DNA of 32,000 nucleotides from the NCBI GenBank assembly GCA_043808785.1, contig JAZDEL010000010.1, forward strand, positions 30,001-62,000, given 5' to 3'. The notes under the pieces are model-generated. The model ran no database searches, was not told the DNA's origin, and saw only the letters and a program-made list of their open reading frames with translations. Positions within the stretch are counted from its first letter, which is position 1. Each line of letters starts with the position of its first letter. Made by a program: the position numbers and the translations under genes. Below are positions 3,074 to 25,680 of the stretch, piece after piece. Source of the stretch: Candidatus Iainarchaeum sp. (GTDB lineage Archaea; Iainarchaeota; Iainarchaeia; Iainarchaeales; JAZDEL01).

Positions 3074-4276
3074 ATGCCCCCCGCAAGCAAGGCGCCCCTG
3101 ACTCGGGCAAGCAAGGCGCTCCTGGTAAGTTACGATTTCATGCCGCGCTTAGGCGGAAAGATAACTTACCTGCACGAGACATTCAGGCGCATGCCAGAGG
3201 GCAAAAAGGCGGTGCTCACCGCGAATTACCCCGGTGCACGCGCGTTTGACGCCACCGCGCCCTACAAAATCTACAGGTTCCCGCGCGCGCTTTTCAGCCT
3301 GCCCATGCCGCCCTTCCCGCGCATCTACCTCCTGAAGGTTTTGCTTTCCCTTCCTTACGCAATTTCCGTGTGCATGCGCGAGAAGCCCGATTATCTCATC
3401 GCCGGCCAGCTCCTGCCCGACGGCGTGCTTTGCCATTACCTTAGCAAGGTTCTGCACGTGCCTTATGCGGTGCAAACCTACGATACCATAGATGTGGAGA
3501 TGCCGCTGCACACCGCGGATGCGGCAATATGCAGGCTTGTTATGCGCGGCGCGGACCGCGTCTTTTACATAAGCGATTTCATGAGGGGCAAGGCCATAGA
3601 TGCGGGGGCGATGGAAGAACGTGCAGTGAAGGCGGAGCCGGGCACGGACCCCGAATTCTTCAGGCCGCACCTTGGCACAAGCGCGCTGAGGAAAAAGCAC
3701 GGCCTCGACGGAAAAAAGGTGCTCCTTACCGTGGCAAAGCTCTCGGAGCGCAAGGGGCACGCGCAGGTAATCCGCGCCCTGCCGCGCGTGCTTGAAAAGT
3801 TCCCCGAACTCGTTTACCTTATGGCAGGGAGCGGCAAATGCGAAGCCGAACTGCGCGGCCTTGCAGACAGCCTCGGGGTAAGCGGCAATGTCATTTTCCT
3901 CGGCAGCGTTGGCAATGCCGAACTCCCGCTCTACTACAACCTCTGCGACATTTTCATAATGCCGAGCTTTTACATTGCGGAAAAGTTTAAGTCGGAGGGT
4001 TACGGCATAGTTTTCCTCGAGGCGAACGCCTGCGGCAAGCCCGTGATAGGCGGCAGGAACGCGGGAATGCTTGATGCTGTTGCCGACGGAAAAACCGGCC
4101 TCTTGGTTGAGCCATCTAACGTCGAGGAGATTTCCTCCGCAATAGTAAAGCTCCTCTCAAACCCCTCCCTAGCGCGCAGGATGGGTAACGCGGGAAGGGA
4201 GCGCGTGCTAAATGAGCGCAACTGGGAAAATTCCGCAAAGGCGGTTTCCCTCGCGATTTTCGGGGGTTCGGCATGA
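3074..4276 (+). CDS. glycosyltransferase family 4
   Basis: ORF 2912..4276 trimmed to ATG 3074 (MPPASK...), because the upstream extension covers the promoter region. Motif: SEGYGIVFLEANACGKPVIGGRNAGMLDAVADGKTGLLV. Confidence 0.8.
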   Translation: MPPASKAPLTRASKALLVSYDFMPRLGGKITYLHETFRRMPEGKKAVLTANYPGARAFDATAPYKIYRFPRALFSLPMPPFPRIYLLKVLLSLPYAISVCMREKPDYLIAGQLLPDGVLCHYLSKVLHVPYAVQTYDTIDVEMPLHTADAAICRLVMRGADRVFYISDFMRGKAIDAGAMEERAVKAEPGTDPEFFRPHLGTSALRKKHGLDGKKVLLTVAKLSERKGHAQVIRALPRVLEKFPELVYLMAGSGKCEAELRGLADSLGVSGNVIFLGSVGNAELPLYYNLCDIFIMPSFYIAEKFKSEGYGIVFLEANACGKPVIGGRNAGMLDAVADGKTGLLVEPSNVEEISSAIVKLLSNPSLARRMGNAGRERVLNERNWENSAKAVSLAIFGGSA

Positions 4277-5685
4277 AAATAATCCTGTGCGACCCCGAGG
4301 GTGTCGTGAAAGGGCTGAACAACGGGCTTGCTTACATCGTTGCGGCGCTTGCAAAGCGCGGCTACTCTTCAGAAGTGCTTGACTGGAACAACCGCCCGGA
4401 AAACGCGGAGGAGAAGCTCCGCAGGCTTGCGGGTGCGGACATAATCGGCATCTCCATAAAGTCATTCACCCTGCGCGGCGCGCTTGAGATTGCGCGCATT
4501 GCGCGCGCGAAAAACAGGCGCGCCCTCATTGTTGCCGGCGGGCCGCACGTAACCCTTGATGCGGAAAACTTCCTGCGCGGGAATGCGGAGTTCGACGCCG
4601 CAATATTGCACGAGGCCGAGGACGCGTTCCCAGAGGTTGCGGATGCGGCCAAAGGCAAAGGAAAGCCGAAGCTTGCCGCGGTAAAGGGAATTATTTTCCG
4701 CTCTCGCGGCAAACTTGTGCGCACAAAGCCCCGCGCATTCAGGGAAAGCCTCGACAGCATACCTTTCCCGGATTATGCAGGCTTCGATTCGATGCCGCAG
4801 GCGATGCACGAATACCCGCTTGTCACAAGCCGCGGCTGCCCCTACCAGTGCACCTATTGCTCCGTCGGGAAAATCATAGGGAAAAAATTCCGTTTCCGCT
4901 CCCCGCAGAACGTTGTCGCGGAACTCGAACACGCGAAGGGCAAATATGGCATAACCTCCTTCTCCATACTCGACGACGATTTCACCCTGCTCATGGACAG
5001 GGCAAAGGAATTCTGCAGGCTGCTCATCGGGAAAAACCTCGCGCTCAAATGGTCGTGCCCGAACGGCATACGCGCCGACCGCCTCGATGCCGAGCTCGTG
5101 AGCCTGATGAAAAAATCCGGCTGTTCCTTTGTCGCGGTCGGTGTCGAGAGCGCCGACCCCGAGGTTTTCGCGGCAATAAAAAAGGGCGAAACCCTCGAAA
5201 CCGTAAGGGCGGCGATTTCACTGCTGCAGGGCGCGGGGATAGAGGTCACGGGCTATTTCATAGTCGGGCTGCCGCACTCCACTTTCGAAAGGGATTTGCG
5301 CTCCCTCGAATTTGCGCGCTCCGCAGGCCTCGACCACGCCTCGTGGGGCATTCTTGTGCCTTATCCCGGAACCGAGGTCTGGGACTGGGTGGGGAAAAAC
5401 GGCAAAATACTCAGGGACTGGAAGGAGGGCTTCCACTTCGGCTCCGAGCCCAAATGCGTTTTTGAAACTTCAGATTACTCTGAAGCGGAGAGGGTGCGCG
5501 CATACTTCATGCTGAACATGCGTTTCGGCAATTACCTTATGTTCTTCCCGCAGCGCGAGAACCGCGCTGTAAAGGCGGCGAAGGCGCTCGGCCTTGTGCT
5601 TAAGTATGACGCATCGCGCCTGCCTTTCCACATTGCGCAGATGGCGCGGGTTTTCGGCTCCGCGCTGGTTAAGGCGCGCGGCTAG
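4273..5685 (+). CDS. B12-binding-domain radical SAM protein (class B)
   Basis: N-terminal Rossmann-like region (ADIIGISIKSF...IVAGGPHVT) and SRGCPYQCTYCSV (CxxxCxxC). ATGA overlap with the upstream GT4 gene. Confidence 0.8.
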   Translation: MKIILCDPEGVVKGLNNGLAYIVAALAKRGYSSEVLDWNNRPENAEEKLRRLAGADIIGISIKSFTLRGALEIARIARAKNRRALIVAGGPHVTLDAENFLRGNAEFDAAILHEAEDAFPEVADAAKGKGKPKLAAVKGIIFRSRGKLVRTKPRAFRESLDSIPFPDYAGFDSMPQAMHEYPLVTSRGCPYQCTYCSVGKIIGKKFRFRSPQNVVAELEHAKGKYGITSFSILDDDFTLLMDRAKEFCRLLIGKNLALKWSCPNGIRADRLDAELVSLMKKSGCSFVAVGVESADPEVFAAIKKGETLETVRAAISLLQGAGIEVTGYFIVGLPHSTFERDLRSLEFARSAGLDHASWGILVPYPGTEVWDWVGKNGKILRDWKEGFHFGSEPKCVFETSDYSEAERVRAYFMLNMRFGNYLMFFPQRENRAVKAAKALGLVLKYDASRLPFHIAQMARVFGSALVKARG

Positions 5686-5738: not shown

Positions 5739-6443
5739 ATGGGTTTGCATATCGACCGCGGTATTTTGGTTCTTGCCGCCTCTGCCGCAGCCGCGGCCTT
5801 CCTCTACTCCTTCGTTTTCTGGCAGGCTTATCCCCCGATTTACAACGCGAACTCGCCGCAGGTGGGCTCGGATGCCGCCAGGTTTGACGCGGTTGTTTTT
5901 CTGGACTATTCCGCCCTCAGCAATGCGGTGTTTGTGCGGGGCGTGATTGAGCCGGTAATCAAGGACTACAGGGGCAGCGTCCGCTTCGTGTTCAAAGTGC
6001 TTCCAACAGACAGCAGGTGCAACCCGGAAACCAATTCCGAAGCCGTTTCATGTACCATGGCGGAGGCGCTTCTGTGCGCGCATGCACAGGGAAAATATTT
6101 CGAATATGCAGGCACTGTAGTGGATTTGATGCTTGCCTCCGCAAAGGACATGCCTGAATCCGCCGGGCAGCAGGTAGTCTACAATTTCTCGGAGGAAGAA
6201 GCCGGCCTCCTTGCTGCAGCGGTCGGGCTCGACAGGGAAAGGCTTGCGGCCTGCATTAAGGGGCATGACGCCCTGCCCGAAATACGCAACAACGCAATAG
6301 AGGGCCGCCTGTATTATCTGGAACACGTCCCCTGGGTGCTGGTCAACCGCAGCGCAGTCCCGTTCCATGAAGGCGCCACCGTGCAGGAGTCCTACCTTCT
6401 GCTGAAGGGCGCAATAGAAAAGGAGCTGAATAAAAATGGCTGA
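5739..6443 (+). CDS. membrane-anchored DsbA/BdbD-like thioredoxin-fold protein, CxxC absent (copy 1)
   Basis: N-terminal TM segment (ILVLAASAAAAAFLYSFVFW). The region aligning to the DsbA 'V.F.DF.CP.C' motif reads VVFLDYSALSNAVF. Retained features: cis-Pro-type loop EHVPWVLVN, AEALLCAHAQGKYF, LAACIKGH, and C-terminal IEKELNKNG (compare BdbD ...IEKELKGK). Confidence 0.65.
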   Translation: MGLHIDRGILVLAASAAAAAFLYSFVFWQAYPPIYNANSPQVGSDAARFDAVVFLDYSALSNAVFVRGVIEPVIKDYRGSVRFVFKVLPTDSRCNPETNSEAVSCTMAEALLCAHAQGKYFEYAGTVVDLMLASAKDMPESAGQQVVYNFSEEEAGLLAAAVGLDRERLAACIKGHDALPEIRNNAIEGRLYYLEHVPWVLVNRSAVPFHEGATVQESYLLLKGAIEKELNKNG

Positions 6444-7599
6444 GCACGGTAAGCCTGGGGGGCTGCCTGCGACGTTCTTCGGCCTCAGCCGCAGGCAGGC
6501 GCTGGCTCTTGCGGCAATTTTAATACTCGCCCTCGGCCTGCGCATCTACGGCATCGGCGACAGGATTGAGGCACCTGACGAGAATATGACCCTCCGGGCC
6601 ATGGGCGACATCGGCAACCTGTACAGCCAACTTGCGGAAGAGGATTTCCACCCCCCGCTTTATTACCTGCTCATTTCTCCCGCATACCTCATTATGCCCG
6701 GCCTTGTTTCAATCCGCCTTGTGGGGGCGCTCCTCGGCGCCTTAACTGTGCTTGCGGTTTTCTTCCTCGCAAGGGAATTCATGGATGCGCGCAAGTCGCT
6801 CATTGCCGCCTTTCTCTTCGCAATCTACCCTTACTCAATTGTTTATTCCCAGCAGGCGAGATGCTATGTGCTTGTCATACTGCTTTCCACGCTTTCCACG
6901 CTTGTTTGGGTAAGATTCCTGAAGGGGAAGGGCAGCCCTATCCTTCTGGTTCCGCTTTATGCCGCCACTGCCTACACGGACTACACCGCAGTTTTCGGGA
7001 TAGCCGTGCAGGCAGCCATAACCCTGCTGCTTAAGTTCCGCACACCCGAAGCCAAAAAATATTTTGGTGCACTTGCGCTGTCCGCAATCCTCTGCCTGCC
7101 TTTATGTTTCCTCCTGGCGGAGCAGCGGGCCATAGGGGTTGCGGCAGTGAAATGGGGCTCCGGAGTTGACGCCCACATAGTGCTGGATTATCTGCGGCAG
7201 GGCATCGGCACCGAATACGGCCTGTATTTCAACAGCCAGCTCGGCATAACCGGCAGGCCGATACCACAGCTCTTCCTCCCCGCGGTTGCCGCCTGGGTTC
7301 TGGCTTTCATCGGCATCTCAATGCTTTGGAGAAGGAGGGCCGACTTTTACGCGCTTGCGGCGCTGTACCTGCTTGCCTCCCTGCTCGTGTTCTTTGCAGG
7401 GCTTGTGCTGTCGTACCCCCCGCAGCACAGGTTTATCCTCTTCCTGACGCCGCTTCTCATCCTTTTCATTGCCGAGGGCACGGACTTCAGGTCGATTGTG
7501 CGCACAACGCTCTTTTTCATAGTGCTCTTCGGCTGGTGCCTTGCGGTGCTCTTCTACTACTCGCATCTCCTTGACCTGCACTACATCGGGCTGCCGTAG
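6436..7599 (+). CDS. GT-C fold membrane glycosyltransferase, GT39/GT83 (PMT_2/ArnT)-like, no soluble domain (copy 1)
   Basis: About 12 hydrophobic segments. First loop carries APDEN (DE motif). Also FHPPLYYLL, IYPYSIVYSQQARCY, and C-terminal LFYYSHLLDLHYIGLP. Confidence 0.65.
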   Translation: MAEHGKPGGLPATFFGLSRRQALALAAILILALGLRIYGIGDRIEAPDENMTLRAMGDIGNLYSQLAEEDFHPPLYYLLISPAYLIMPGLVSIRLVGALLGALTVLAVFFLAREFMDARKSLIAAFLFAIYPYSIVYSQQARCYVLVILLSTLSTLVWVRFLKGKGSPILLVPLYAATAYTDYTAVFGIAVQAAITLLLKFRTPEAKKYFGALALSAILCLPLCFLLAEQRAIGVAAVKWGSGVDAHIVLDYLRQGIGTEYGLYFNSQLGITGRPIPQLFLPAVAAWVLAFIGISMLWRRRADFYALAALYLLASLLVFFAGLVLSYPPQHRFILFLTPLLILFIAEGTDFRSIVRTTLFFIVLFGWCLAVLFYYSHLLDLHYIGLP

Positions 7600-7700
7600 C
7601 TGCGCGTTCCTGAGGGACTGCCCGGCCGGCTGAAGCGGCAATCCGGCGGGTTTATGGCAATTGTGGCGGATTGTTTTCACGGGGCGCCTAACATGCGCTT

Positions 7701-7707
7701 TTTATAT
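7701..7707 (+). promoter_or_regulatory. TATA-like box (TTTATAT) for module copy 2
   Basis: Starts 31 nt upstream of ATG 7732. Context is conserved with the copy-1 promoter. Confidence 0.4.
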
Positions 7708-7731
7708 GCTTTTTGCACTACACCAGATAGG

Positions 7732-8457
7732 ATGAAGCCGGATGGGATATGGGGGCTGCCTGTCTCTGCGAATGGGGGGCGCAACCTGCTGATTTCAGTC
7801 GCGGTTGCATTTTTTTTGTATTCCTTTGTTTTCTGGCAGGATTACCCGCTCCTCGACAACGGCAATGCGCCGCAGATTGGCCCCGAAGGCGCCGAGGTCA
7901 AGGTGGTTGTTTTTGTGGATTATGCCTTCTTCGGAAATGTAATGTTTGTGCGGGGCGCGCTGGAGCCGCTGATTAAAGAGTATAATGGCCGCGCCAGCTT
8001 CGTGTTCAGGGTTCTTCCAGCGGACCGCAAGTGCAACCCAGAAACCGATTCGGAAACCGCTTCCTGCGCTTTGGCTGAGGCGTTGTTCTGCTCCCGCGAG
8101 CAGGGGCTGTATTTTGCATATGCCAATGCTGTAATGGATTTCATGGCTGCCGGCGCAATGAGCCTGCCCGAAAGCGCCCGCCCGTCGATAGTCCACAATT
8201 TCTCGGGGCAAGAGCTGGATTATCTGGCGGTGCAGGCGGGGCTTGACAAAGAAAAATTTGCGGCATGCATTAAAGAGCACAACGCCGGGCAGGAAATACG
8301 CAACAATGCCATAGCGGGCAGGCTCTATTATTTGGAGCGCACCCCCCACGTGCTGGTTAATCACAGGGTTGTCAATTTCCGCAAGGGGATAAGCATAAAT
8401 GAGTCCTATCTTCTGCTGAGAAGCGCAATAGAAAAGGAGCTGCAGGGCCATGCCTGA
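7732..8457 (+). CDS. membrane-anchored DsbA/BdbD-like thioredoxin-fold protein, CxxC absent (copy 2)
   Basis: ORF 7654..8457 trimmed to ATG 7732 by alignment with copies 1 and 3 and by the TATA position. The CxxC position reads VVFVDYAFFGNVMF. Loop ERTPHVLVN; C-terminus IEKELQGHA. Confidence 0.65.
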   Translation: MKPDGIWGLPVSANGGRNLLISVAVAFFLYSFVFWQDYPLLDNGNAPQIGPEGAEVKVVVFVDYAFFGNVMFVRGALEPLIKEYNGRASFVFRVLPADRKCNPETDSETASCALAEALFCSREQGLYFAYANAVMDFMAAGAMSLPESARPSIVHNFSGQELDYLAVQAGLDKEKFAACIKEHNAGQEIRNNAIAGRLYYLERTPHVLVNHRVVNFRKGISINESYLLLRSAIEKELQGHA

Positions 8458-9616
8458 GCAAAAACCACTCGTGAATTTTTCGGATTTCCTGCGCGGCAAC
8501 AGCCGCATGGCGCTTCTCGCCCTTGCGCTCATTTTCATCCTTGCGCTCGGCCTGCGCATCTACGGCATATCTGAAAAGATTGAAGCGCCGGACGAGAACC
8601 TGACCCTTGCGGAATTGAGCAGGTTTACCCCCGCGCCTGTTGAGGGCGCAGCCTTTGATTTCAACCCCCCGCTCTACTACTTCCTTGTTGCGCCGGCATA
8701 CCTCCTCGCCCCGGGCCTTGCCTCGGTGCGCCTGATGGGCGCGCTCTTCGGCGCCCTTACAGTGCTTGTTATTTTCTTCCTCGCAAGGGAATTCATGGGT
8801 GAAAACAAATCCCTCCTTGCCGCATTCCTCTTCGCCATCTACCCTTACTCCATTGTTTATTCCCAGCAGGCGAGGAACTATGCCCTCGCCGCGCTGCTGT
8901 TTTCGGTTTCCCTCATTTTGTGGGCCAGGCTGATGAAAGGAAAAGGGCAGCCGTGGCATCTCGCCGCTGTTTATGCAGCAATGCTCTATGCCCACTACTT
9001 CCTTATATTCGGCATAATCGGCCAGGCTGCGGTAACATTGCTGCTGAAAATGAGGGGCAAAGCCCCTGATTTCGGGAAGTTTGTTAAGGTAGCCGCGATT
9101 GCGGCAGCATTGTCAATCCCCCTATTTTTCATTCTTGCTTCACAGTATGGGTATAGCGGGATGTCGAAAAGCACCCCGTCCATTGACCCGCGCTTTGTCC
9201 TGAATTACCCGCGCCACGGCATAGGGCTGGATTACGGTTTTAATTTCAATTCCGTATACGGCATTTTCGGTGCGCCAATACCGAGGCTTATTTTGCCGAT
9301 TCTTGCGGCATGGGCGCTGGCGCTGGCAGGCATGCGGATGCTCCTGAAAAAGGGGGGCGGCATGCCCGCGCTTGTAAAATTGTATTTTGCCATCCTTCTT
9401 ATTGTAGTTCTTGCAGGTTTCGCTTCCCCCCCGCTTGCCCGCCCGCAGTACATATTCTTTACAACGCCCCTTTTCATCCTGTTCATCGCCAGGGGCGCGG
9501 ATTACGAACGGCTGCCGCTTGCAATGCTCTTCTGCATTTTGGTTCTCGGCTGGCTGCAGGCGATATTGTTCTATTATTCCCACTTGCCCGACCTGCACTA
9601 TATCGGCCTCCCTTAA
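8450..9616 (+). CDS. GT-C fold membrane glycosyltransferase, PMT_2/ArnT-like (copy 2)
   Basis: APDEN, FNPPLYYFL, IYPYSIVYSQQARNY, LFYYSHLPDLHYIGLP. Confidence 0.65.
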   Translation: MPEQKPLVNFSDFLRGNSRMALLALALIFILALGLRIYGISEKIEAPDENLTLAELSRFTPAPVEGAAFDFNPPLYYFLVAPAYLLAPGLASVRLMGALFGALTVLVIFFLAREFMGENKSLLAAFLFAIYPYSIVYSQQARNYALAALLFSVSLILWARLMKGKGQPWHLAAVYAAMLYAHYFLIFGIIGQAAVTLLLKMRGKAPDFGKFVKVAAIAAALSIPLFFILASQYGYSGMSKSTPSIDPRFVLNYPRHGIGLDYGFNFNSVYGIFGAPIPRLILPILAAWALALAGMRMLLKKGGGMPALVKLYFAILLIVVLAGFASPPLARPQYIFFTTPLFILFIARGADYERLPLAMLFCILVLGWLQAILFYYSHLPDLHYIGLP

Positions 9617-9734
9617 TGGCGATACGCATGGGCTGCACGGAGTTTTCGGCGATAATCCCCGCAGGCAACGGAAATGCCATGCTTTTAACAATAGTTATGG
9701 ACACACATAGTTTTTGGCAGGGGGGCGTGCAGGC

Positions 9735-10424
9735 ATGGAATTGAGCGAAAAACACGTCTTCTTTATTTCCGCGCTCGCGGTTATCGTTCTCTATTCCTTT
9801 GTTTTCTGGCAGGATTATCCGCTTCTTGACAACAGCCGCGACCCGCAGGTGGGCCCGCAGAATGCCGCGGTTGACGTGGTTATATTTGCGGATTATTCCA
9901 CCTCCCGCAGCGCGGCATTTCTTTCGGAAGTAATGTGGCCCCTTATCGAGGAGTACAGGGGCCGCGTGCGCTTCGTCTTCAAGATGTTTCCCATGGACAA
10001 GCGGTGCAACCCCGAAGTGATTTCAATGCTCCCTTCCTGCGATTTTGCCGAGGCATTGTTATGCGCAGATGCGCAGGGGGGATTTGAAGCATACAGCAAG
10101 GCCGCGGCGAAACTTGTTCTTGAGGACATGAACAGCCTGCCCGGGGGCTTGACCCCCGGCGTGCATGTTTTTTCAGAGCGCGAATTGTACTCTTTGGCGG
10201 GGCAGGCGGGGCTGGATAAAGAAGAATTTGCGGTTTGCATTAAGCAGCACGGCTCGGCAGGGCAAATACGCGACAATGCCATGGAGAGCCGCCTGTATTA
10301 TATTTCCGCTACCCCCGCAGTGCTTGTCGGCTATATGCGCATTTCGGGTGCCGACCTGTCTGCGGAAGATTTTAATGTTCTGCTGAAGAACGGCATAGAA
10401 AAGGAGCTGAGCAGGCATGCGTAA
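9735..10424 (+). CDS. membrane-anchored DsbA/BdbD-like thioredoxin-fold protein, CxxC absent (copy 3)
   Basis: ORF 9714..10424 begins at TTG; ATG 9735 (MELSEKHVFFISALAVIVLYSFVFWQDYPLLDN) is preferred. The CxxC position reads VVIFADYSTSRSAAF. Loop SATPAVLVG; C-terminus IEKELSRHA. Confidence 0.6.
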   Translation: MELSEKHVFFISALAVIVLYSFVFWQDYPLLDNSRDPQVGPQNAAVDVVIFADYSTSRSAAFLSEVMWPLIEEYRGRVRFVFKMFPMDKRCNPEVISMLPSCDFAEALLCADAQGGFEAYSKAAAKLVLEDMNSLPGGLTPGVHVFSERELYSLAGQAGLDKEEFAVCIKQHGSAGQIRDNAMESRLYYISATPAVLVGYMRISGADLSAEDFNVLLKNGIEKELSRHA

Positions 10425-11643
10425 AAAAAGTCATTTTAGAGGGGGGTCCGATGCGGAGGAGCCGCACGAGGGGGAGTCAGATGCAGGAAAGCCTGTCGCC
10501 GGCCTGCCGGGTTTTTTGCGCGGCAACAGCCGCAGGGCGCTTCTCGCGCTCGCGCTTATTTTCATCCTCGGCCTCGGGCTGCGCCTTTACGGCATTTCCG
10601 AGAAAATCCAGGCGCCTGACGAGGATGTGACCCTCGCACGGTTGAGCGGTTTTACCGCGGCGCCGGTGGAAAGCCCTGCCCCAGATTTCAACCCCCCCTT
10701 ATACTACCTCCTTGTGGCGCCCGCATACCTGATAGCGCCCGGCCTCGCATCCGTGCGCCTGATGGGCGCACTCTTCGGCGCCCTTACAGTGCTTGTTATT
10801 TTCTTCCTTGCAGGGGAATTCATGGGTGAAAACAAATCCCTCCTTGCCGCATTCCTCTTCGCCATCTACCCTTACTCCATTGTTTATTCCCAGCAGGCGA
10901 GGAACTATGCCCTTGCAGTGCTGCTTTTTGCCATTGCAACCCTCTTTTGGGTAAGGTTCCTGAAGGGGAAAAACAGCGCCAGGGCGCTGCTCCCCATCTA
11001 TGCCGCAATGCTTTACACGCACTACGTGCTGATTTTTGGCGTACTTGCCCACGCCGCAATCACCTTTTTCCTTAAGGGCAGCAGCGGCGCGGAAAGCAGG
11101 AAATACCTCTTTTCGGTTGCGGTTGTTGCGCTCCTAGCGGTTCCGCTGCTCCTGCTTATTGTGATGCAAGGCGGGCAAACCGGGCTGTCAAATTCTGCAG
11201 CGGCATCATTCGACAGCCGCGCCGTGCTTAATTACTTCAGGCAGGGGGTCGGAATCGATTATGGCTTCTACTTCGGCAACGCCTACGGCATCTACGGAAG
11301 GCCGGTGCCCAAGTTCATGGTGCCTGCAGCCGCGTGCTGGGCATTGGTATTTTTGGGCCTGTTTGCCCTCTGGAGAAAAAGGGAGGACTTCTTCATTCTT
11401 GCCGGCACATATTTCCTGGTTGCGTTCGTTGCCCTTGTTGGAGGCATGTTCTCCACCTTTCTTGCGCAGCCCCACTACCTGCTTTTCATAACCCCCGTCT
11501 TCCTGCTGTTCATTGTGCGCGGCACAAATTTCAAATCCATCCCCCGCACGGTTCTTTTCCTGCTGGTTGTGGGCGGCTGGCTGCAGGCAATATTGTTTTA
11601 TTATTCCCACTTGCCCAACCTCCATTATATCGGCCTCCCTTAG
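10417..11643 (+). CDS. GT-C fold membrane glycosyltransferase, PMT_2/ArnT-like (copy 3, acidic N-terminal extension)
   Basis: APDED, FNPPLYYLL, IYPYSIVYSQQARNY, LFYYSHLPNLHYIGLP. Extra N-terminal segment SDAEEPHEGESDAGKP. Confidence 0.65.
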   Translation: MRKKSHFRGGSDAEEPHEGESDAGKPVAGLPGFLRGNSRRALLALALIFILGLGLRLYGISEKIQAPDEDVTLARLSGFTAAPVESPAPDFNPPLYYLLVAPAYLIAPGLASVRLMGALFGALTVLVIFFLAGEFMGENKSLLAAFLFAIYPYSIVYSQQARNYALAVLLFAIATLFWVRFLKGKNSARALLPIYAAMLYTHYVLIFGVLAHAAITFFLKGSSGAESRKYLFSVAVVALLAVPLLLLIVMQGGQTGLSNSAAASFDSRAVLNYFRQGVGIDYGFYFGNAYGIYGRPVPKFMVPAAACWALVFLGLFALWRKREDFFILAGTYFLVAFVALVGGMFSTFLAQPHYLLFITPVFLLFIVRGTNFKSIPRTVLFLLVVGGWLQAILFYYSHLPNLHYIGLP

Positions 11644-11653
11644 CGGTGTTTTT

Positions 11654-12385
11654 ATGAAGCCGGAATATTCCGTCATTATTCCCGCAAGAAACGAGGAAGA
11701 GACGATAGCCCCGGCTATCGGCGCGCTCCGCAAAACGCTGAAGGGCAATTACGAGATAATAGTCGTGAACGATTCCTCCGCAGACAACACCGCGGGAATT
11801 GTTGCGCGCCTTGAAGGGGCAAGGCGTTCCATCCGCCTTGTTCATTCCGAGAAGAGGGGTTTCGCAAATGCGCTCCTGCGCGGCATTGCCGCGTCGCGTT
11901 CGCAGGCCGTGGTGCCTGTAATGGCCGACCTGTGCGACAGGCCAGAAGACGTAAACCTGATGTTTGGAAAGATGGCGGAAGGATACGGCATTGTGTGCGC
12001 TTCCCGCTACATGAAGGGCGGCAGGCGCATAGGCGGTTCGCGCGCAAAGGCATTTTTTTCCTGGTTTGTGGGGCTCCTCTTCAACAGGCTTATAGGGGTG
12101 CCGACTGCGGACTCCACAAACTCGTTCAAGATGTACAGGAAGGATGTTTTGAGGAAGGTTCTGCCGAAACTGCTGAAGGGCGGCAGTTTCAGTTTTTCGC
12201 TCGAGGTGACAATGCTTGCCTACTTCAGCGGATTCCGCATAACCGAACTCCCCACTGTTTGGAGGGAGCGGAGCGAGGGCGTGTCAAAGTTTAACGTGCC
12301 CAACATGGCGCCGGAGTACTTTTCCGTATTTCTGGATGCCTTGAAGAGGAAACTGCAGGTTCTTGCGGGCGGGCGCGAGGCATGA
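11654..12385 (+). CDS. GT2 glycosyltransferase, polyprenyl/dolichyl-phosphate sugar synthase (Dpm1)-like
   Basis: ORF 11513..12385 trimmed to ATG 11654 (MKPEYSVIIPARNEEETI); the extension overlaps the upstream gene. Motifs: IIVVNDSSADNT, VMADLCDRPEDV, ASRYMKGG, DSTNSFKMYRKDVL. Confidence 0.7.
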   Translation: MKPEYSVIIPARNEEETIAPAIGALRKTLKGNYEIIVVNDSSADNTAGIVARLEGARRSIRLVHSEKRGFANALLRGIAASRSQAVVPVMADLCDRPEDVNLMFGKMAEGYGIVCASRYMKGGRRIGGSRAKAFFSWFVGLLFNRLIGVPTADSTNSFKMYRKDVLRKVLPKLLKGGSFSFSLEVTMLAYFSGFRITELPTVWRERSEGVSKFNVPNMAPEYFSVFLDALKRKLQVLAGGREA

Positions 12386-12471
12386 TGCGTAAGATGCATG
12401 CCCTTGCGGGCAGGCGCTTGGCATGATGTGCAGGCTGCAGGTTCTCGCAGGCAGGTGCTTGGCATGATGTG
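12352..12471 (+). repeat. three imperfect tandem 40-41-nt repeats spanning a gene junction
   Basis: Units at 12352-12390, 12391-12430 and 12431-12471. Core is cttgcgggcaggcgcttggcatgatgtg. The ATGA tetranucleotide recurs at 12382, 12423 and 12464 (exactly 41 nt apart). Confidence 0.8.
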
Positions 12472-13579
12472 CGCTTGCCCGAAAGCCGCCGCGCATAAGG
12501 GCGGGCAGGCCCGGGCAAAAGTAACCGTTCTGCGGAAATGCAAAGGCTGCACCTATTCCCCGCCGGCGCGCGCGTCATACTCGTCCGGGCAGCTTTCCAC
12601 GACAGGGCTCTGCCTGCAGGCATTGCACACCGCATTCCCTTACATTCTCACACTCGGCAACGGCGGCAATTTCGGCTGGGAGCGCGAGGGCAGGGTTTTT
12701 GCGCAGTGCCCAGGCCCCGACGGCAGGGTGGATATGCGCATAACGGGGGAAAGCGTAACCGTTTCCGCGCTGGAGGGCGTTTGCCGCGCAAAGCACAAAG
12801 TCGGCGGGCATTTTCACGTTTCCCAAAAAGGCGGCTTCTGCCTGCGCGCCTTCGATTCCGTTTTCCCGTACCTGCTTCTTGCAATGCGCAGCGGCGGAAG
12901 TGCCCGCAGTTACGGGGTTTCCTGCCCGCATCCCGGGGGCGCGGTTTTCGAAATATCCCGCGCAGGCAGGAAAAGGCTCGGGAAAGGCGCAAGGCGCAAA
13001 AAATCCGCGGAACCTGTCTGCGGCACGGCATCCCCTTTCGCGGTAAGCGTTGCCTCAATGTCGAAGAGGTGCGGCAAATACCATCCGAAGCAGGGGGAGG
13101 TTTTTGATGCCTTGCGCCTCGCGCCCAAAGGGCTCTGCCTGCACGCATACCATGTTCTCTACCCTTACGCCCTTGCGCTGCTTTACGGCGCCGATCTTTC
13201 AGCCCTGGGTTCGGGGGGGCGTGGCTCGGTTGTTGTCCGCTGCCCGAACGGCGCGGCAACCTTCGAGGTTTGCCGCAGCGGCAAAAAGGGGAAAAAGGCG
13301 ATTGCACTGCTTAACAGGATTTCCAAAGAAATCCGCCCTGTGGACCTGCCGCTCTACGGCATTTCGATGCGCGTTGTTTCCGTGCACGGGCACTGCCCGC
13401 AGAAGCACCGTGCCGGCGAGAAGTTCGGGCTGAAGGAGTTCAACATCCTTGGCAGGAAAGAGCTCTGCCCGGCGGGGTTTGATGCCGTGTTCCCGCTCAT
13501 GTTTGCGCCGAGGGGGGCAAAACTGCGCGCGCGCTGCCCGGATTCTGGGGCAAACGTGGTTTATGAAGCGGAACAGTGA
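12464..13579 (+). CDS. protein with four tandem TIGR04076-like Cys-containing domains, function unknown
   Basis: Four repeats of about 70-80 aa at roughly nt 12518-12748, 12752-12961, 13037-13276 and 13361-13573. Each has the pattern C...G..F...(G)(L/F)C..A...(F/Y)P(Y/L)......G........CP....(A/V).(F/V). Domain 1 carries GNGGNFGWEREG...QCPGPDGRV, typical of the roughly 90-aa TIGR04076 family as I recall it. Start is ATG 12464 (MMCACPK) or in-frame ATG 12398. Confidence 0.55.
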   Translation: MMCACPKAAAHKGGQARAKVTVLRKCKGCTYSPPARASYSSGQLSTTGLCLQALHTAFPYILTLGNGGNFGWEREGRVFAQCPGPDGRVDMRITGESVTVSALEGVCRAKHKVGGHFHVSQKGGFCLRAFDSVFPYLLLAMRSGGSARSYGVSCPHPGGAVFEISRAGRKRLGKGARRKKSAEPVCGTASPFAVSVASMSKRCGKYHPKQGEVFDALRLAPKGLCLHAYHVLYPYALALLYGADLSALGSGGRGSVVVRCPNGAATFEVCRSGKKGKKAIALLNRISKEIRPVDLPLYGISMRVVSVHGHCPQKHRAGEKFGLKEFNILGRKELCPAGFDAVFPLMFAPRGAKLRARCPDSGANVVYEAEQ

Positions 13580-13694: not shown

Positions 13695-14741
13695 TCACCC
13701 GCGGTTTCCGAGAAGTACCGCCTTTGCCGCATTAAAAAGCGCGCGCCTCTCGAGGCCGAGGATTGCGCACGCCTCGACGTCCCCGTTCGCGTGGCAGGAG
13801 TAGCACCCCCTCTCCGCAAGGTTATCCCACGCCTTTTCAAACCCTGCATCGCGCATGTTAATCCCGCGCTTCCACATTGCGGGGCAGCCGTAAATGCCGC
13901 CGTCAGAATCTATCCAGCAGCTGAGCGTGCCCACATTGCATTTCATAACTTTCGAAAGGTCGTATTTAGCCTTGTCCTTTTTGTAGATGACGTCGCTGTC
14001 TTTTGCAGGCCAGTTCAGCACGTGGTCGAAGAAAGCGTCGGAGTTCAGCACCTTGTGCCCGCGCCTCTTCATTTCCCCGAGCCTGGCGAAGAATTTGCTT
14101 GTTTCCGCGGGCGTAACCACAAAATCGCCGATCCTTGCCTCGTCCGTCGCCTGGTACTGCGAGTAATTGAACGCCGCGCCGTATTTTTTCGCCAGTTCCG
14201 CTAATTCATCCAGCGAGCCGATGCTGTATTTCGTCAGCACCGCGTGCAGCCTTAAGTTTGCGCCCGCAAGGTGTGCGGCTTCAATCGCCTCCAGCGCCCT
14301 GTCATAAGTTCCCTTTCCCCTGCACTTCTCTGTTGCACGCCTGTTGCCGTCGATGCTTATGCAGACCGAGTGCACCTTCTTCAGCAGCGGCAGGTGCTGC
14401 TTGAGCAGGGTGCCGTTAGTGACAAGCTCCACGATTATGTTCTTCTCCGCAAACTTGTCTACAATCCTGTAAATGTCCTTCCTCATGAGCGGCTCCCCGC
14501 CGACAACGCGCACCCACCTCGTGCCCATTGTAGCGAGCTTGTCTATAAGCGCGAGTATTTCCTCGGTGCTCAGCTCTTCCTTGTCCCTGAGGCTTTCAAG
14601 GTCGGCGTAGCAGTAGCCGCACCGCAGGTTGCAGTGCTTGGTTATCTGGAAGTTCACGTAGAGCGGCTTCCTTGCCCCCGTCAGCCTGCAATACAAAATT
14701 TCAAAAAACAGCGCCGTGCCCGCGGTCAATGGATTTGCCAT
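13695..14741 (-). CDS. radical SAM / SPASM-domain protein
   Basis: ORF 13695..15200 trimmed to ATG 14741 (MANPLTAG); the extension is antisense to the SDR gene and promoter. Motifs: ITKHCNLRCGYCYAD (CxxxCxxC), VVGGEPLM, and a C-terminal Cys-rich region KCNVGTLSCWIDSDGGIYGCP...RGCYSCHANGDVEAC. Confidence 0.75.
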   Translation of the reverse strand: MANPLTAGTALFFEILYCRLTGARKPLYVNFQITKHCNLRCGYCYADLESLRDKEELSTEEILALIDKLATMGTRWVRVVGGEPLMRKDIYRIVDKFAEKNIIVELVTNGTLLKQHLPLLKKVHSVCISIDGNRRATEKCRGKGTYDRALEAIEAAHLAGANLRLHAVLTKYSIGSLDELAELAKKYGAAFNYSQYQATDEARIGDFVVTPAETSKFFARLGEMKRRGHKVLNSDAFFDHVLNWPAKDSDVIYKKDKAKYDLSKVMKCNVGTLSCWIDSDGGIYGCPAMWKRGINMRDAGFEKAWDNLAERGCYSCHANGDVEACAILGLERRALFNAAKAVLLGNRG

Positions 14742-14763
14742 AGGGAATAACACCCCCGCTGTC

Positions 14764-14842
14764 TTTAAAAAAGTATGCGGGCTTGTGCATTTATGCTGGG
14801 GCTTTGGGTTTAAAAAAATATGCGGGGTTGTGTATTTTATGC
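14764..14842. promoter_or_regulatory. divergent promoter with tandemly duplicated (45-nt period) TATA-box/start module
   Basis: tttaaaaaagtatgcgggcttgtgcatttatgc (14764-14796) and tttaaaaaaatatgcggggttgtgtattttatgc (14809-14842). The second copy ends in SDR start ATG 14839. The first A/T box is centred about 27 nt from the rSAM/SPASM ATG at 14741. Confidence 0.45.
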
Positions 14843-15606
14843 GGAAGCTCGAGGGAAAGGTCGCGCTGGTTACGGGCGGCTGCCGCGGCCTGGGCAGGCA
14901 TATTTCGCTGCTTCTTGCAAGGCACGGCGCGGATGTGGCAATCGTCGGGCTGGACAAGGGGCGCCTCGCCGCCACGGGGCGGGAGCTTTCCGTGCTGGGC
15001 TCCGAGGCACTCGCGTGCAGGTGCGATGTGCGCAGCCTGAAAGACATAACCGCGGCAACAAAAAAAATTTCAAAAAGGTTCGGCAGGGTGGACATCCTCG
15101 TGAATAACGCGGGATTGGCAAACAAGCAGACCCTGGACGAAATCTCCCACGGCGAGATAGACAACATCATCGATACAAACCTTTCGGGGCTTATCCACAT
15201 GACAAAGGCAGTGCTTCCGCTAATGCCGAAGCAGAAGGGCAGCGTGATTGTGAACGTTTCCTCCCTCGCTGGCAGGATTGCGGTCCCAAGGCACAGCGTT
15301 TATGGCGCTACGAAATTCGGGGTTGCCGGGTTCACGCAGTCCCTTGCCAAGGACCTGAAAAAAACGGGGGTGCGCGTTTACGCCCTGTGCCCGATGGGCA
15401 TAGATACCGAAATGGCCAGAGTTTTCGAGCCAGGCTATGAGAAGCTCAGGGACAACGGGCTTCTGCTCGGCCCCGAGAGTGTTGCGGAAAAGGCGGTTGC
15501 GTTGTGCATGCCCTCCTGCGGGAAGCGCACAGGCTCGCTCGTGAACGTTATGAATTACAGGGCGCTCTTGCTTCGTCCCGAGAAATTGCTGCGCGCCCTG
15601 CCCTGA
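14839..15606 (+). CDS. short-chain dehydrogenase/reductase (SDR)
   Basis: ORF 14716..15606 trimmed to ATG 14839. Motifs: KVALVTGGCRGLGRHI (TGxxxGxG), NNAG, SSLAG...YGATKFGVAGF (S...YxxxK). Confidence 0.85.
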   Translation: MRKLEGKVALVTGGCRGLGRHISLLLARHGADVAIVGLDKGRLAATGRELSVLGSEALACRCDVRSLKDITAATKKISKRFGRVDILVNNAGLANKQTLDEISHGEIDNIIDTNLSGLIHMTKAVLPLMPKQKGSVIVNVSSLAGRIAVPRHSVYGATKFGVAGFTQSLAKDLKKTGVRVYALCPMGIDTEMARVFEPGYEKLRDNGLLLGPESVAEKAVALCMPSCGKRTGSLVNVMNYRALLLRPEKLLRALP

Positions 15607-21128: not shown

Positions 21129-22102
21129 TCCTTGACACGCCCCTTTGCGGCGCCGTTTATAACTCCTGCCGCAAGCCCCGCGGCAAAAACAACGGAGCGG
21201 AGCGCAATCACGAATGGCGCAACAATTCCCGCCGCGAAATCCCTGCGCATTGCAAAGATTGTGAAAGGCAGTGTGCTGAGCGCGCCCAGCACCAGTGCTG
21301 CGGCGGGCACAAAAATAAGCGAAGGCATAAAAACCGTTGCTGCAGCGCCCGCGCAGAAGATACAGAACAGCCCTATCTGCATCTTTAAAATCTGCGGAGT
21401 ATAAGAATCCCTTATCGCCTTGCTCCTGTGCTTGCTGTAGAGCAGGACGCGCCAGTACGCGCGGTAGAACTTGCTTTTGAGGTAAGGGAGCAGCGCGCTC
21501 TGGTGCCTGTGGAAGACTATCGCCTCGGGATTGAATATCAGCCTGTGCCCTTTTTTGGAGAGCTTGAAGCTAAGTTCGGGGTCCTCTCCCGAGGCAATGG
21601 GGAATGATTCGTCGTATCCGCACTCCTCCACGAAAACCTTCCTGCGGTACGCCGCGGAGTACGAGCCGACCCAGTCGAGGCTTCTCATGCGCCTCATCCT
21701 GTTGTACCTGTCCTCTATCTCTATCTGCGAGAACCTTGCGATAAGCTCGCACTGTTTCGTTTTATACGCGCCCTGCACACCTGCGACATCCCTTTCCAAG
21801 AACGGCTTAAGCAGTTCCGCAAGCCAGTTTTCCGAGGCAGTGCAGTCCGAGTCTATGAATGCAACGAATTCACCCCCTGCGTTTTTCACGCCGCGGTTCC
21901 TCGCCGATGCCGGCCCCGAATTCTTCTGGCTTATGTATTTCGCCCCGAACCTTTTCACAACTTTTGCCGTTCCGTCGGTGCTCCCGTCATCGACAACAAT
22001 AACCTCGAAACCGCCGGCAACCTTCTGCCGCAGCACGGATTCAAGGCAGGCGGAGATTGTTTTCTCCGCGTTGTACACGGGGATTATGACGCTGGCCTTC
22101 AT
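21125..22102 (-). CDS. glycosyltransferase family 2 with C-terminal membrane segments
   Basis: SVIIPVYNAEKTI, VIVVDDGSTDGT, FIDSDC, hydrophobic C-terminus. ATGA-type overlaps at both ends. Confidence 0.8.
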   Translation of the reverse strand: MKASVIIPVYNAEKTISACLESVLRQKVAGGFEVIVVDDGSTDGTAKVVKRFGAKYISQKNSGPASARNRGVKNAGGEFVAFIDSDCTASENWLAELLKPFLERDVAGVQGAYKTKQCELIARFSQIEIEDRYNRMRRMRSLDWVGSYSAAYRRKVFVEECGYDESFPIASGEDPELSFKLSKKGHRLIFNPEAIVFHRHQSALLPYLKSKFYRAYWRVLLYSKHRSKAIRDSYTPQILKMQIGLFCIFCAGAAATVFMPSLIFVPAAALVLGALSTLPFTIFAMRRDFAAGIVAPFVIALRSVVFAAGLAAGVINGAAKGRVKE

Positions 22103-23865
22103 TTTATCATGCTCCTGCCGTCCATGTTCGGGTTATTTTTTGCCCCGAAATATTTAAGTGCGGTTGGGGCGAGGCACATTATGTTTGCACCCTCCAGTTC
22201 GAGGGGCTCGCCGCAAAAAATTACCCCCGCATTCCTCTCGGGCGTGCCTGGCCCAATATGGTCGGCGCACCATTTGCTGCGGTTTTCATAAACCGTTCCG
22301 CCCGCGCCCACACCGCCGAGCGCGGTTTCGCGCGAAGCCCTGAACCCTTCGTTATACAGCGGCACAATGTCCGCCATGTCCTTTGCATATGGGCCGAAGA
22401 AAATTTCGCTTCCCCTGAGCGTGCCCTCCAGCGCGCTTACGCCCCTGTGCCTGATTTTTCCCAAAACGGAAGCGGCATCGCGCATCACGCCCTCGCTTTC
22501 CCGCGCATCCACAATTCCTTTCGCCTCCCTGCCCTTGAGGTTTATGTAAACCCCCGCAAACCCCGCTGCATACGCCTTTGTCCTTGCCCAGTTTATGCCC
22601 CCGATTGTTTCCGAAGTTTCCCCCTCCCGCAGTCCAAGGAGGCCTGCATCCATCAGCGCCTTGTTCAGCTGCACGTTCCACCTGTATGTCGAGAAGCCGT
22701 GGTCGGAAATAACGAACGTCATGCAGTTTTCCCCGAAAATTTTCCTGAATTTTCCGAATTCCGAATCCATGCGCACGTACGCTTTTTCAATCTCCCCCGC
22801 AAACTCGGGATTTTCCTCGAAGTAAGGGTGCCCCCCGTCCTCGAACCTCATGAACATATGCTGGGCACGGTCCACCGCGAAAAAATTGCAGGTGAAAAAT
22901 TCCCATGGCTTGTTCCTGAGCAGGTATTCCGCTGCCTTCGCCCTTGTTTCAAGGGTGAAATACATGTCCTCGCGGTAAACCGCCTCATCTATGAGCCCTT
23001 CCTTGAGGCCGTGCACATCGGATTCAAATGAATTATTCTTGTACACTCCGGCAGCATCGGCAATCTCCTTCGCAATTCCAGCGGGTTCGGTTATGTTCAC
23101 ATGCGGGTTATAGGGGGAAATCATAACCGGCGAGGCGTAAAGCACAAACTTTTCCCCGCGCAGGCTGAGCAGCCTGAAGCGCATCACGCCCTCCCTTTTC
23201 CCGAACATTGCGCGCACATATTTGCTCCATTCCCCGCTGCGCAGCCTTATTTTTTCGCCGGCAATTGAAATTTCAACATATTCCGCAGATACGGAGATTT
23301 TCATTTTCACCCTCTCGCTTTCATCCGCAATAAGTTCCGCATCCCCGCCTTTTACAAACACAACCTCCTGCTTCTTCGGGAACTTCGGGTCGTTTGTGAA
23401 TGCCGCAGGCATGCCCTGCGTCCCCCGTAAATCGGGAACGCCCATTCCGCCAAGCACTATTCCGTTGAAAGGCACGGGCGGAAATGTCACGGGAATGAAT
23501 GCCGCAATTCCCCGCACTCCCGCTTCGCCCAGCGCATTCCAGAAAGGCCTCTCCCTTATCACAGGCAGGAATTTCCTCGCTCCAAGCGCATCTGTAATTT
23601 CGTCGTTCAGCCCTAACTTGAGCCCGAGGGTTTTGGGGTCGCGCATTATGAAATCGAAAACCCCGTGCTTGCCCGGGTTCATGCCGGTCATGAACGAGCT
23701 CCACGCAACGGGGCTCTGCGAAACGTGCGTTGTGGCGAGCCTGCCGAAACATCCCTCATCCGCAAGTTGCGCAAGGTTCGGGAGCATGCCTGCCTTGAGC
23801 ATCTTCCCCACGCGCTTAGGGTCCGCGCCGTCTATGCCGAAGATTGCGAGTTTTTTCCCCTGCAT
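22099..23865 (-). CDS. alkaline-phosphatase-superfamily protein, NPP-like (paralog class of 349-1737)
   Basis: KLAIFGIDGADP, SQSPVAWSSFMTGMNPGKHGV, TFVISDHGFST. The track start at 23874 is GTG. ATG 23865 (MQGKKLAIFG) is preferred by analogy with the other paralog. Confidence 0.7.
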   Translation of the reverse strand: MQGKKLAIFGIDGADPKRVGKMLKAGMLPNLAQLADEGCFGRLATTHVSQSPVAWSSFMTGMNPGKHGVFDFIMRDPKTLGLKLGLNDEITDALGARKFLPVIRERPFWNALGEAGVRGIAAFIPVTFPPVPFNGIVLGGMGVPDLRGTQGMPAAFTNDPKFPKKQEVVFVKGGDAELIADESERVKMKISVSAEYVEISIAGEKIRLRSGEWSKYVRAMFGKREGVMRFRLLSLRGEKFVLYASPVMISPYNPHVNITEPAGIAKEIADAAGVYKNNSFESDVHGLKEGLIDEAVYREDMYFTLETRAKAAEYLLRNKPWEFFTCNFFAVDRAQHMFMRFEDGGHPYFEENPEFAGEIEKAYVRMDSEFGKFRKIFGENCMTFVISDHGFSTYRWNVQLNKALMDAGLLGLREGETSETIGGINWARTKAYAAGFAGVYINLKGREAKGIVDARESEGVMRDAASVLGKIRHRGVSALEGTLRGSEIFFGPYAKDMADIVPLYNEGFRASRETALGGVGAGGTVYENRSKWCADHIGPGTPERNAGVIFCGEPLELEGANIMCLAPTALKYFGAKNNPNMDGRSMIK

Positions 23866-24026
23866 GAAGTTCACGCCCTTCCGCGCCCTGCTGCCGCACT
23901 TTTGCGTGCCGGCATGCCTTCACACCCCCGCGCGCGCACGGTGCGCGCATTTGCGTGCCGGCATGCGCCCGTCCGCCCTCGCGCACGGAGGCACGCGCGG
24001 CATCCCGCTTCCCTGCGCAGCCATGC

Positions 24027-24328: not shown

Positions 24329-25669
24329 TTATTCTGTTGCCGTTACCGTGCCGCCGGCAACAGTGCCCGTGCCGCGCATAAGCACGAACCTGCCGAGCGT
24401 AGGGAAGTCCGAGAATTTCTCGACGGCAATTTCCTTTTTTGTTTCTATAACCGCCTCCGCAACCTCGTTCGCCTCGATGGATGCCGCGTTCTCGGAAATT
24501 GTTTCAAGCGTTGAACTGTCCATTTTCCGCGCCACGGAAACAATCGCGGCCTTCCCCTCCTGCGTCGAGCACTTCAGCGTAACCTCCCCCGGGATTTGTA
24601 TCCCTTCGCGCGCGAGCCAGAATATGTTCGCGCGGAACCTCTTTGCCCTGTGCGGAACGCTTTCCGCGCTGCCCGCAATTTCCCCGCGCTCGGCAAAAAC
24701 AGGCTCCGTTGTTGTTATGCCCGTGCTCTCCCCGGCCTCCGCCTCCTTTTTCGCGGGGTTCAGATATTCCTCCACGCTTTTAACCCTCGTTTTTGTGCCG
24801 CTCGGCATGAAAACTATTTCCTGCCCGCTGCGTATCCTGCCGCTCTCTACCCTTCCCGCGTAAATTCTCTTCTCGCCAATCTTGTAAACGTCCTGCACCG
24901 CATACCTCAGCCCCTGTTCCGTGGGCTTTTTCATGCACTCGAACTCGTCAAGCGCCTCGAGCACTGTCGGGCCTGTGAACCAGGGCATGTTCTTTGATTT
25001 CGCCGCAATATTGTCCCCACATTTCGCGGAAATCGGTATTATGAATTTTGGCGTAATGCCCAGCCTGCCGAGGAATTCAGAAATTTCCTTCCCAAGGCTT
25101 TCGGGCTTCGCCTTATCGTAATTCACTGAATCCATCTTGTTCAGCGCAACTATGACCTGTTTCATCCCGAGAAGGGAAAGCACATATGCGTGCCTCCTTG
25201 TCTGTTCCTGCACGCCCTCCGCAGCATCAACAATGAGTATCGCCGCCTCGGCAAGCGATGCCCCCGTTATCATATTCCTCAGGAACTCCTTGTGCCCCGG
25301 CGCATCGATTATTACGTAATTCCTCTTTGCGGTTTTGAAATAGGTGTGCGCGGTGTCTATCGTTATGCCCTGCTCCCTTTCCTCCTGAAGATAGTCCATA
25401 ACAAACGCAAACTCGACTTCCTTTCCCGAAGAGCCGCACTCCCTCTCTATCTCCTCCTTCTTCCCCTTCGGCAGCGAATCCGTGTCGAAGAACAGCCTGC
25501 CTATAAGCGTGCTCTTGCCGTGGTCAACATGCCCCGCGAGTACAAGATTGAGGCTCTCGCGCTCTCCTCCCTGCCTGGCAACCCCGCCCCGAACGCTTCC
25601 CGTGCCGGCGGCACGCCCCTTAACCGTGCGCGAACCCGCGCTTTGCTTTTTTTTGCCATTTGCGCCCAT
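24329..25669 (-). CDS. cysN: sulfate adenylyltransferase subunit 1 (GTPase), no fused APS kinase
   Basis: [14 protein letters not shown] (G1), DAPGHKEF (G3), NKMD (G4). Sits directly downstream of cysD. 446 aa, with no extra C-terminal kinase domain. Confidence 0.8.
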
Positions 25670-25680
25670 GCCGTTCGCCC

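Follow-up and report, generated by a model that had tools for sequence, protein, structure and literature searches.

What does a DsbA-like protein do once both of its catalytic cysteines are gone? Thioredoxin-fold domains without catalytic activity have been described before, although little is known about what most of them do in prokaryotes. The window analyzed here, a 32-kb stretch of DNA from Candidatus Iainarchaeum sp., encodes three DsbA-like paralogs without the CxxC active site, each followed immediately by a gene for a GT-C glycosyltransferase. Whether these paralogs retain redox activity at another site, are decaying duplicates, or have taken up a different task, possibly alongside the glycosyltransferases, is the question posed by this locus.

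Three DsbA-like paralogs without CxxC

The three genes and their former active-site segments are arranged as follows.

5739..6443, + strand: CxxC-less DsbA-like paralog 1, 234 aa (ORF and translation; Pfam Thioredoxin_4)
5904..5927, + strand: segment at the former active site of paralog 1, where DYSALSNA replaces DY.CxxC (translation, profile alignment)
7732..8457, + strand: CxxC-less DsbA-like paralog 2, 241 aa from ATG 7732 (the longest ORF, from 7654, has 267 aa)
7918-7941, + strand: former active-site motif of paralog 2, DYAFFGNV (translation)
9735..10424, + strand: CxxC-less DsbA-like paralog 3, 229 aa from ATG 9735 (the ORF from TTG 9714 has 236 aa)
9891-9914, + strand: former active-site motif of paralog 3, DYSTSRSA (translation)

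The real start of paralog 2 is likely ATG 7732 and not 7654, because the former is preceded by a TATA-like box at a distance of about 30 nt and a 241-aa NCBI protein (P0003) has the same length. With this start, the two extra cysteines of the 267-aa reading frame fall outside the protein, and each copy has exactly four cysteines, located at positions 94, 105, 113, and 172 in paralog 1. For paralog 3, the start at ATG 9735 was adopted because an NCBI protein (P0001) has the same length of 229 aa; an NCBI protein identical (100%) to this paralog carries the name "thioredoxin domain-containing protein." For both paralogs, the longest ORF is thus probably over-extended, by 7654-7731 in paralog 2 and 9714-9734 in paralog 3. 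In Pfam searches, the paralogs scored just above the Thioredoxin_4 cutoff of 23.2 bits (PF13462; 24.1, 27.8, and 39.8 bits, with E values of 4.5e-5, 3.3e-6, and 6.7e-10 for paralogs 1, 2, and 3) and did not reach the DSBA threshold (PF01323; 11.9-14.8 bits, cutoff 25.6). Paralog 1 consists of an N-terminal transmembrane (TM) anchor followed by a DsbA-type domain.

An initial annotation of this DNA had placed the motifs DYSALSNA, DYAFFGNV, and DYSTSRSA at the position of the active site, and translation confirmed all three where it had located them. In an alignment of the paralog profile with PDB sequences, these motifs fall on DYGCGKCA of F. tularensis DsbA1 (9edl), DYQCSWCS of BcfH (7jve), and DYKCPSCK of BdbD (3eu3). 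Since they align on the DY.CxxC of solved DsbA/BdbD proteins, both catalytic cysteines are replaced, by A/N, F/N, and T/S, respectively. The same annotation had inferred loss of CxxC and had named a genuine CxxC elsewhere in the protein as evidence to the contrary; a regex scan of the whole proteins found neither a CxxC nor a CxxS/T active-site variant in any of the three copies, and its inference holds. All three thus lack the CxxC at the N terminus of helix alpha-1 by which a functional DsbA/BdbD oxidoreductase is recognized. The (T/V)P loop reported as retained is present as well: in the sequence alignment, the proline of EHVPWVLVN, ERTPHVLVN, and SATPAVLVG, which follows a T or V, falls on the (G)TP cis-Pro of the relatives. 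This position and the four cysteines are invariant across the three copies.

The paralogs are not unique in this loss. Among 226 related aligned domains from the best 150 relatives, CxxC is kept in 186 (82%) and absent in 40, so that its loss must be regarded as recurrent, and CxxC-less domains are often extra copies behind a live one. The VKOR-DsbA fusions P0005, P0045, and P0073 contain one or two additional Thioredoxin_4 domains without CxxC in which a CNP...C pair is kept; these dead copies, with the motifs DYTGETIR, DYQDSNTSL, and DYATKETAAA, recur in tandem with live domains. In an unrelated stand-alone DsbA-like protein (P0088, 228 aa; L005 5001-5687, also L006 and L007), SPFS replaces CPFC, which is not a recoding artefact because both serines are encoded by TCT codons. 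The gene adjoins a DsbB gene, placing a dead DsbA beside a seemingly normal oxidase partner.

The redox-dead thioredoxin fold that had been suspected proved to be of the DsbA type. The AF2 model of paralog 3 (pLDDT 91.6, pTM 0.83) comprises an N-terminal TM helix (residues 12-32) followed by a thioredoxin fold into which a helical domain is inserted. The top Foldseek matches of the model were C. diphtheriae TsdA/DsbA, BdbD, and ScsC (E 3e-11 to 1e-8), with a probability of 1.00 to DsbA/BdbD/ScsC structures, and Wolbachia alpha-DsbA and Mtb DsbA were further matches in a set spanning E values of 3e-11 to 1e-6 and TM scores of 0.55-0.65. These solved proteins, BdbD being that of B. subtilis, are membrane-tethered or periplasmic and share the fold, and their active-site position and cis-Pro align with those of the paralogs. 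All of them are CxxC oxidoreductases and none has the 11-residue CNP...C loop, whereas the paralogs lack CxxC and have the loop.

Loss of an active site might herald decay, with the copies being degenerating duplicates under relaxed constraint that are becoming pseudogenes. Consistent with this, conservation within the structured parts of the proteins is lowest at the former active site (26% invariant), which could reflect relaxed constraint around the old active site rather than tuning of specificity, and dN/dS between the paralogs (0.36-0.43 by Nei-Gojobori, at a dS of 0.9-1.2, near saturation) is above that between their GT-C partners (0.25-0.31 by the same method). However, all copies are intact, their dS of about 1 implies that they have long been maintained, the AF2 confidence is high, and neither the four cysteines nor the proline aligned with the cis-Pro varies. 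A comparison at unsaturated dS (0.178) was possible with an ortholog encoded on a Logan contig of 927 bp (L004; 88% amino acid identity, motif DYSTSSSA) and gave a dN of 0.059 and an omega of 0.33. Neither this value nor those among the paralogs are near 1, pointing to purifying selection, in agreement with the annotation's view that these are not decaying pseudogenes. Degeneration is therefore largely refuted and has a negligible probability in our estimation. With 10/12 residues invariant versus 35% overall, the 12-mer LYSFVFWQ.YP, where the chain leaves its membrane anchor, is the most conserved of the proteins. Taken at their sequence and predicted fold, the paralogs are very probably selected, structurally intact, redox-dead DsbA-fold proteins situated outside the membrane.

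Conserved cysteine pairs and the nearest relatives

All three copies contain an (R/K)CNPE-x6-SC pair, which the initial annotation had not found in BdbD and had offered as a candidate structural disulfide. Its absence from BdbD stood: neither BdbD nor any other solved structure in the alignments has the CNP...C loop, an 11-residue gap taking its place. The implied novelty did not, since 124 of 148 related domains carry the pair. An HMM search of 1.84 billion representatives retrieved only the paralogs' own cluster at E<1e-30, and with the same profile 146 proteins fell below 1e-10 and 2761 below 1e-3; judged by these searches, the paralogs are an isolated branch among Thioredoxin_4 relatives.

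Cysteine statistics were drawn from an alignment of the best 150 relatives from this search, and the disulfide reading rests on cysteine co-occurrence across these relatives. For CNP...C, 23 of the 148 aligned domains had neither cysteine and a single one was discordant, which supports a structural disulfide as the most likely interpretation of the pair. The helix cysteine (AEALLC) and the F..C cysteine (ACIK), a fourth conserved cysteine that the first reading had missed, pair by co-variation as well (both in 107 domains, neither in 24, discordant in 2). Thus, CNPE...SC and AEALLC/ACIK are most likely two inherited structural disulfides.

Alternatively, the paralogs might still be redox active at a non-canonical site, with CNPE...SC serving as a new reactive disulfide. 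The pair is invariant in all copies, and its loop, according to secondary structure, follows strand beta-3, which borders the active-site region in DsbA folds. Yet the pair co-varies as a unit, mostly in domains that keep a normal CxxC, which is the signature of a structural disulfide, and no VKOR or DsbB partner was found among the ORFs scanned in the window. We consider such a relocated redox site very unlikely.

The nearest sequence relatives of the paralogs are VKOR-associated DsbA-like domains (PF13462, with a "D..CNP-x8-C" loop; E 7e-22 and weaker). DsbA fold, CNP...C pair, helix cysteine plus F..C, and the aligned proline of the cis-Pro loop are common to both groups, and from its distribution the CNP...C pair is ancestral to this large VKOR-associated subfamily that still has CxxC. 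The relatives act together with VKOR or are fused to it, and apart from CxxC-less copies in some multidomain members they mostly possess the active site, whereas the paralogs are stand-alone proteins without it, coupled to a GT-C instead of a quinone reductase. Ten long Thioredoxin_4 relatives that were scanned are VKOR fusions, and no Thioredoxin_4-GT-C fusion was detected among them. The seemingly new cysteine pair is hence ordinary for the subfamily, and the triplicated module of a dead DsbA and a minimal GT-C is the more interesting feature.

Pairing with GT-C genes in a glycosylation island

The genes downstream of the paralogs are listed here together with the gene that follows the third pair.

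6436..7599, + strand: GT-C glycosyltransferase 1, 387 aa, PMT_2/GT39-like (Pfam PMT_2 E 1.5e-9; APDEN loop-1 motif)
8450..9616, + strand: GT-C glycosyltransferase 2, 388 aa (Pfam, alignment, AF2)
10417..11643, + strand: GT-C glycosyltransferase 3, 408 aa (Pfam, alignment)
11651..12385, + strand: GT2 glycosyltransferase, polyprenyl-phosphate-sugar-synthase-like (Pfam Glycos_transf_2 E 5e-28)

The start of each GT-C gene overlaps the stop of the preceding paralog gene by 8 nt, reading ATGGCTGA at the paralog 1/GT-C 1 junction, ATGCCTGA at the second, and ATGCGTAA at the third; the pattern, ATGnnTGA or ATGCGTAA, is found at 3/3 junctions and on the ortholog contig L004. From this arrangement we conclude that each CxxC-less gene is translationally coupled to the GT-C gene downstream. 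The pairs form three tandem units of approximately 2.0 kb on the + strand, between 5.7 and 11.6 kb, with a repeat spacing of 2014 and 2027 nt, and the pair was triplicated as one unit. TATA-like boxes about 30 nt upstream of ATG 5739 (TTTATATG) and ATG 7732 (TTATATGC) argue for three bicistronic units. The initial annotation had overlooked this GT-C context, which renders its suggestion of a fold repurposed for binding more specific, if still conjectural.

The GT-C proteins match PMT_2 (PF13231) with 33-39 bits at a cutoff of 26.1. The AF2 model of GT-C 2 (pLDDT 84.3, pTM 0.88) has an all-helical GT-C core; its Foldseek matches are STT3, Pmt4, PglB, AglB, and ArnT (E 8e-6 to 7e-4), the best being STT3 subunits of OST complexes. 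An Asp-Glu pair in loop 1, the first extracytoplasmic loop (D48, E49), is invariant in 29/29 aligned sequences, and by this measure the GT-C enzymes look catalytically competent. Their last TM helix is followed by just 11-12 aa, versus a soluble domain of 109-268 aa in 26/26 aligned relatives, and the short C-terminal tail SHL..LHYIGLP is conserved (10/12 invariant). Enzymes of the ArnT, PglB, and AglB types likewise carry their soluble extracytoplasmic domain at the C terminus. We considered whether the CxxC-less protein is a detached homolog of the C-terminal domain of these relatives and rejected this (hhalign probability 0.1%). That domain had no meaningful PDB match. As the missing domain is not thioredoxin-like, the CxxC-less protein could at best be its non-homologous replacement. 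GT-C 2 and GT-C 3 share 89-98% nucleotide identity at about 8660-8890 versus 10690-10920 and approximately 50-60% over the C-terminal half. The highly similar stretch looks like a recent gene-conversion tract homogenizing the TM2-TM4 region and blurs the congruence of the paralog and GT-C trees, which comprise three taxa.

Co-transcription by itself would also be compatible with an independent role in which the protein serves secreted proteins as a chaperone or holdase without redox chemistry, comparable to a PDI b'-type domain and forming no complex with the GT-C. The paralogs have kept the DsbA fold and the aligned proline of the cis-Pro loop, and the dead Thioredoxin_4 domains beside live ones in multidomain VKOR-DsbA proteins indicate that non-catalytic roles within folding systems exist. 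Against such a chaperone stand the strict 8-nt overlap at every junction, including that of the ortholog, the triplication of paralog and GT-C as a whole unit, and the anchor exit being the most conserved segment; in addition, the ORFs scanned within the window include neither a live DsbA nor a VKOR or DsbB. We therefore view this explanation as doubtful, while granting it more weight than the other alternatives.

The one-to-one gene pairing and the co-duplication, together with the extracytoplasmic, membrane-anchored position of the domain, might suggest that each GT-C has the CxxC-less protein encoded beside it as its dedicated acceptor, i.e., a surface glycoprotein on a DsbA scaffold, one per enzyme. 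Against this, the three copies share no conserved N-x-S/T sequon, paralog 3 having none at all, and no Ser/Thr/Pro-rich stretch suited to O-glycosylation is evident in the sequences. Translational coupling, moreover, suggests stoichiometric subunits, not an enzyme and its substrate. This scenario appears unlikely to us.

The lipid-linked sugar that the GT-C enzymes would use as donor probably comes from the GT2 encoded after the third pair. Over most of its length, the GT2 protein has NCBIfam matches, all sub-threshold, to ArnC (1.4e-13), Dol-P-hexose transferase (8.4e-12), AglJ (1.3e-11), and PpgS. Directly 3' of this gene lies that of a Cys-rich 393-aa protein (12398-13579, + strand) with four repeats of the uncharacterized TIGR04076 family (E 1e-31) and no Pfam match. 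The surroundings constitute a glycosylation island. Besides several genes of the GT4 and GT2 families, it encodes sugar-nucleotide and B12-radical-SAM enzymes, a homolog of asparagine synthase, two proteins of the type-I phosphodiesterase family, and a pair resembling CysD and CysN. This last pair, a CysN-like GTPase (GTP_EFTU) and a CysD-like PAPS_reduct protein resembling a sulfate adenylyltransferase, and the two proteins of the type-I phosphodiesterase/alkaline-phosphatase superfamily (24329-26481, 349-1818, and 22099-23874, all - strand) hint that the surface glycans may be sulfated or phospho-modified. Among the glycosyltransferase genes lie those of two B12-binding radical SAM enzymes and of one SPASM-type radical SAM enzyme (4273-5685, + strand; 26618-28111, - strand; 13695-15200, - strand), the gene at 4273-5685 lying immediately upstream of the first pair. 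Scans of the window for tRNAs and Rfam families gave no matches.

Homolog and profile searches located the family in one MAG of the Diapherotrites, a DPANN lineage, and on the one 927-bp contig, and profile scans of genome and metagenome contigs revealed no further pairings. Bacterial GT-C relatives had no thioredoxin neighbor; their genes lie beside GH92 and GtrA, the latter as in polyprenyl-phosphate-sugar systems. Literature searches returned no description of a GT-C paired with a DsbA or thioredoxin protein in prokaryotes.

A candidate GT-C subunit and its analogues

Based on gene overlap, co-duplication, GT-C truncation, and the conservation pattern, we assign a probability of about one half to the CxxC-less protein being a non-catalytic, extracytoplasmic partner subunit of the adjacent GT-C. 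According to this proposal, a membrane-anchored DsbA-fold pseudo-oxidoreductase that has lost its thiol-disulfide chemistry would partner the GT-C encoded immediately downstream. Both proteins would be made in a 1:1 ratio and assembled in the membrane, where contact might be established via the unusually conserved anchor exit LYSFVFWQ.YP and possibly via the GT-C tail SHL..LHYIGLP. The downstream GT2 would make a dolichyl-phosphate sugar, which the GT-C would move onto an acceptor outside the cell, be it a protein, a glycan, or a lipid. In DsbA enzymes, the cis-Pro loop flanks the groove in which unfolded substrate peptides are held; the dead DsbA domain may likewise hold or display the acceptor, with no redox chemistry involved. 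The divergence of the three pairs would then correspond to three acceptor or donor specificities. Several results speak against this proposal: the searches located the pairing in one MAG and on one short contig, the bacterial GT-C relatives had no thioredoxin neighbor, none of the ten long Thioredoxin_4 relatives scanned was fused to a GT-C, and the soluble domain missing from the GT-C is not thioredoxin-like.

The nearest functional analogy, without homology at the family level, is provided by yeast Ost3p/Ost6p and human TUSC3/MagT1. Ost3p/Ost6p and MagT1 are membrane-anchored thioredoxin-fold, non-catalytic OST subunits that act beside a GT-C and modulate acceptor-site use (PMC8191290, PMC4137057), and in Ost3/6 the CxxC is active and redox activity matters (PMC4137057). 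Membership of the paralogs in the Ost3/Ost6 family was considered and excluded: they lack CxxC, gave no Pfam match to OST3_OST6 (PF04756) even at E<=1, and differ in topology. Ost3/6 proteins have a plain thioredoxin fold followed by four C-terminal TM helices, whereas the paralogs have a DsbA-type fold with a helical insert behind one N-terminal TM helix. Their partner also differs from the GT-C of OST in being PMT_2/ArnT-like, without the WWDYG-bearing soluble domain.

A second comparison is offered by the three-component systems GtrA/GtrB/GtrC, ArnC/ArnT, and PgfS/PgfM1, in which, as here, a gene resembling a GT2 polyprenyl-phosphate-sugar synthase is found next to a GT-C gene. The GT-C described here lacks a soluble domain, unlike those in the three-component systems. 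These systems are not known to include a thioredoxin-fold component, and the literature searches yielded none.

Considering these analogies, it is tempting to propose a two-subunit GT-C in which a dead DsbA-fold protein, derived from VKOR-type disulfide machinery, was recruited to a minimal GT-C confined to the membrane and binds the acceptor as its extracytoplasmic subunit. Prokaryotes would then have arrived independently at the principle of Ost3/6 and STT3, here expanded to three specificity variants. We put forward this wider proposal tentatively, and with less confidence than the partner-subunit role itself.

CxxC-less domains prove to be recurrent within Thioredoxin_4, and this locus provides an unusually clean genetic hint at what such domains may do: three co-duplicated, coupled pairs in which no GT-C has a soluble domain of its own. 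Should the pairing amount to co-expression only, the finding reduces to a lineage-specific pseudo-DsbA. If it reflects a complex, acceptor recognition by GT-C enzymes of prokaryotes can be delegated to a separate subunit, as in the eukaryotic OST. The locus would then serve as a minimal model in which to study how GT-C specificity is set by accessory domains, and the evolution of a pseudo-enzyme from disulfide-bond machinery would be documented.
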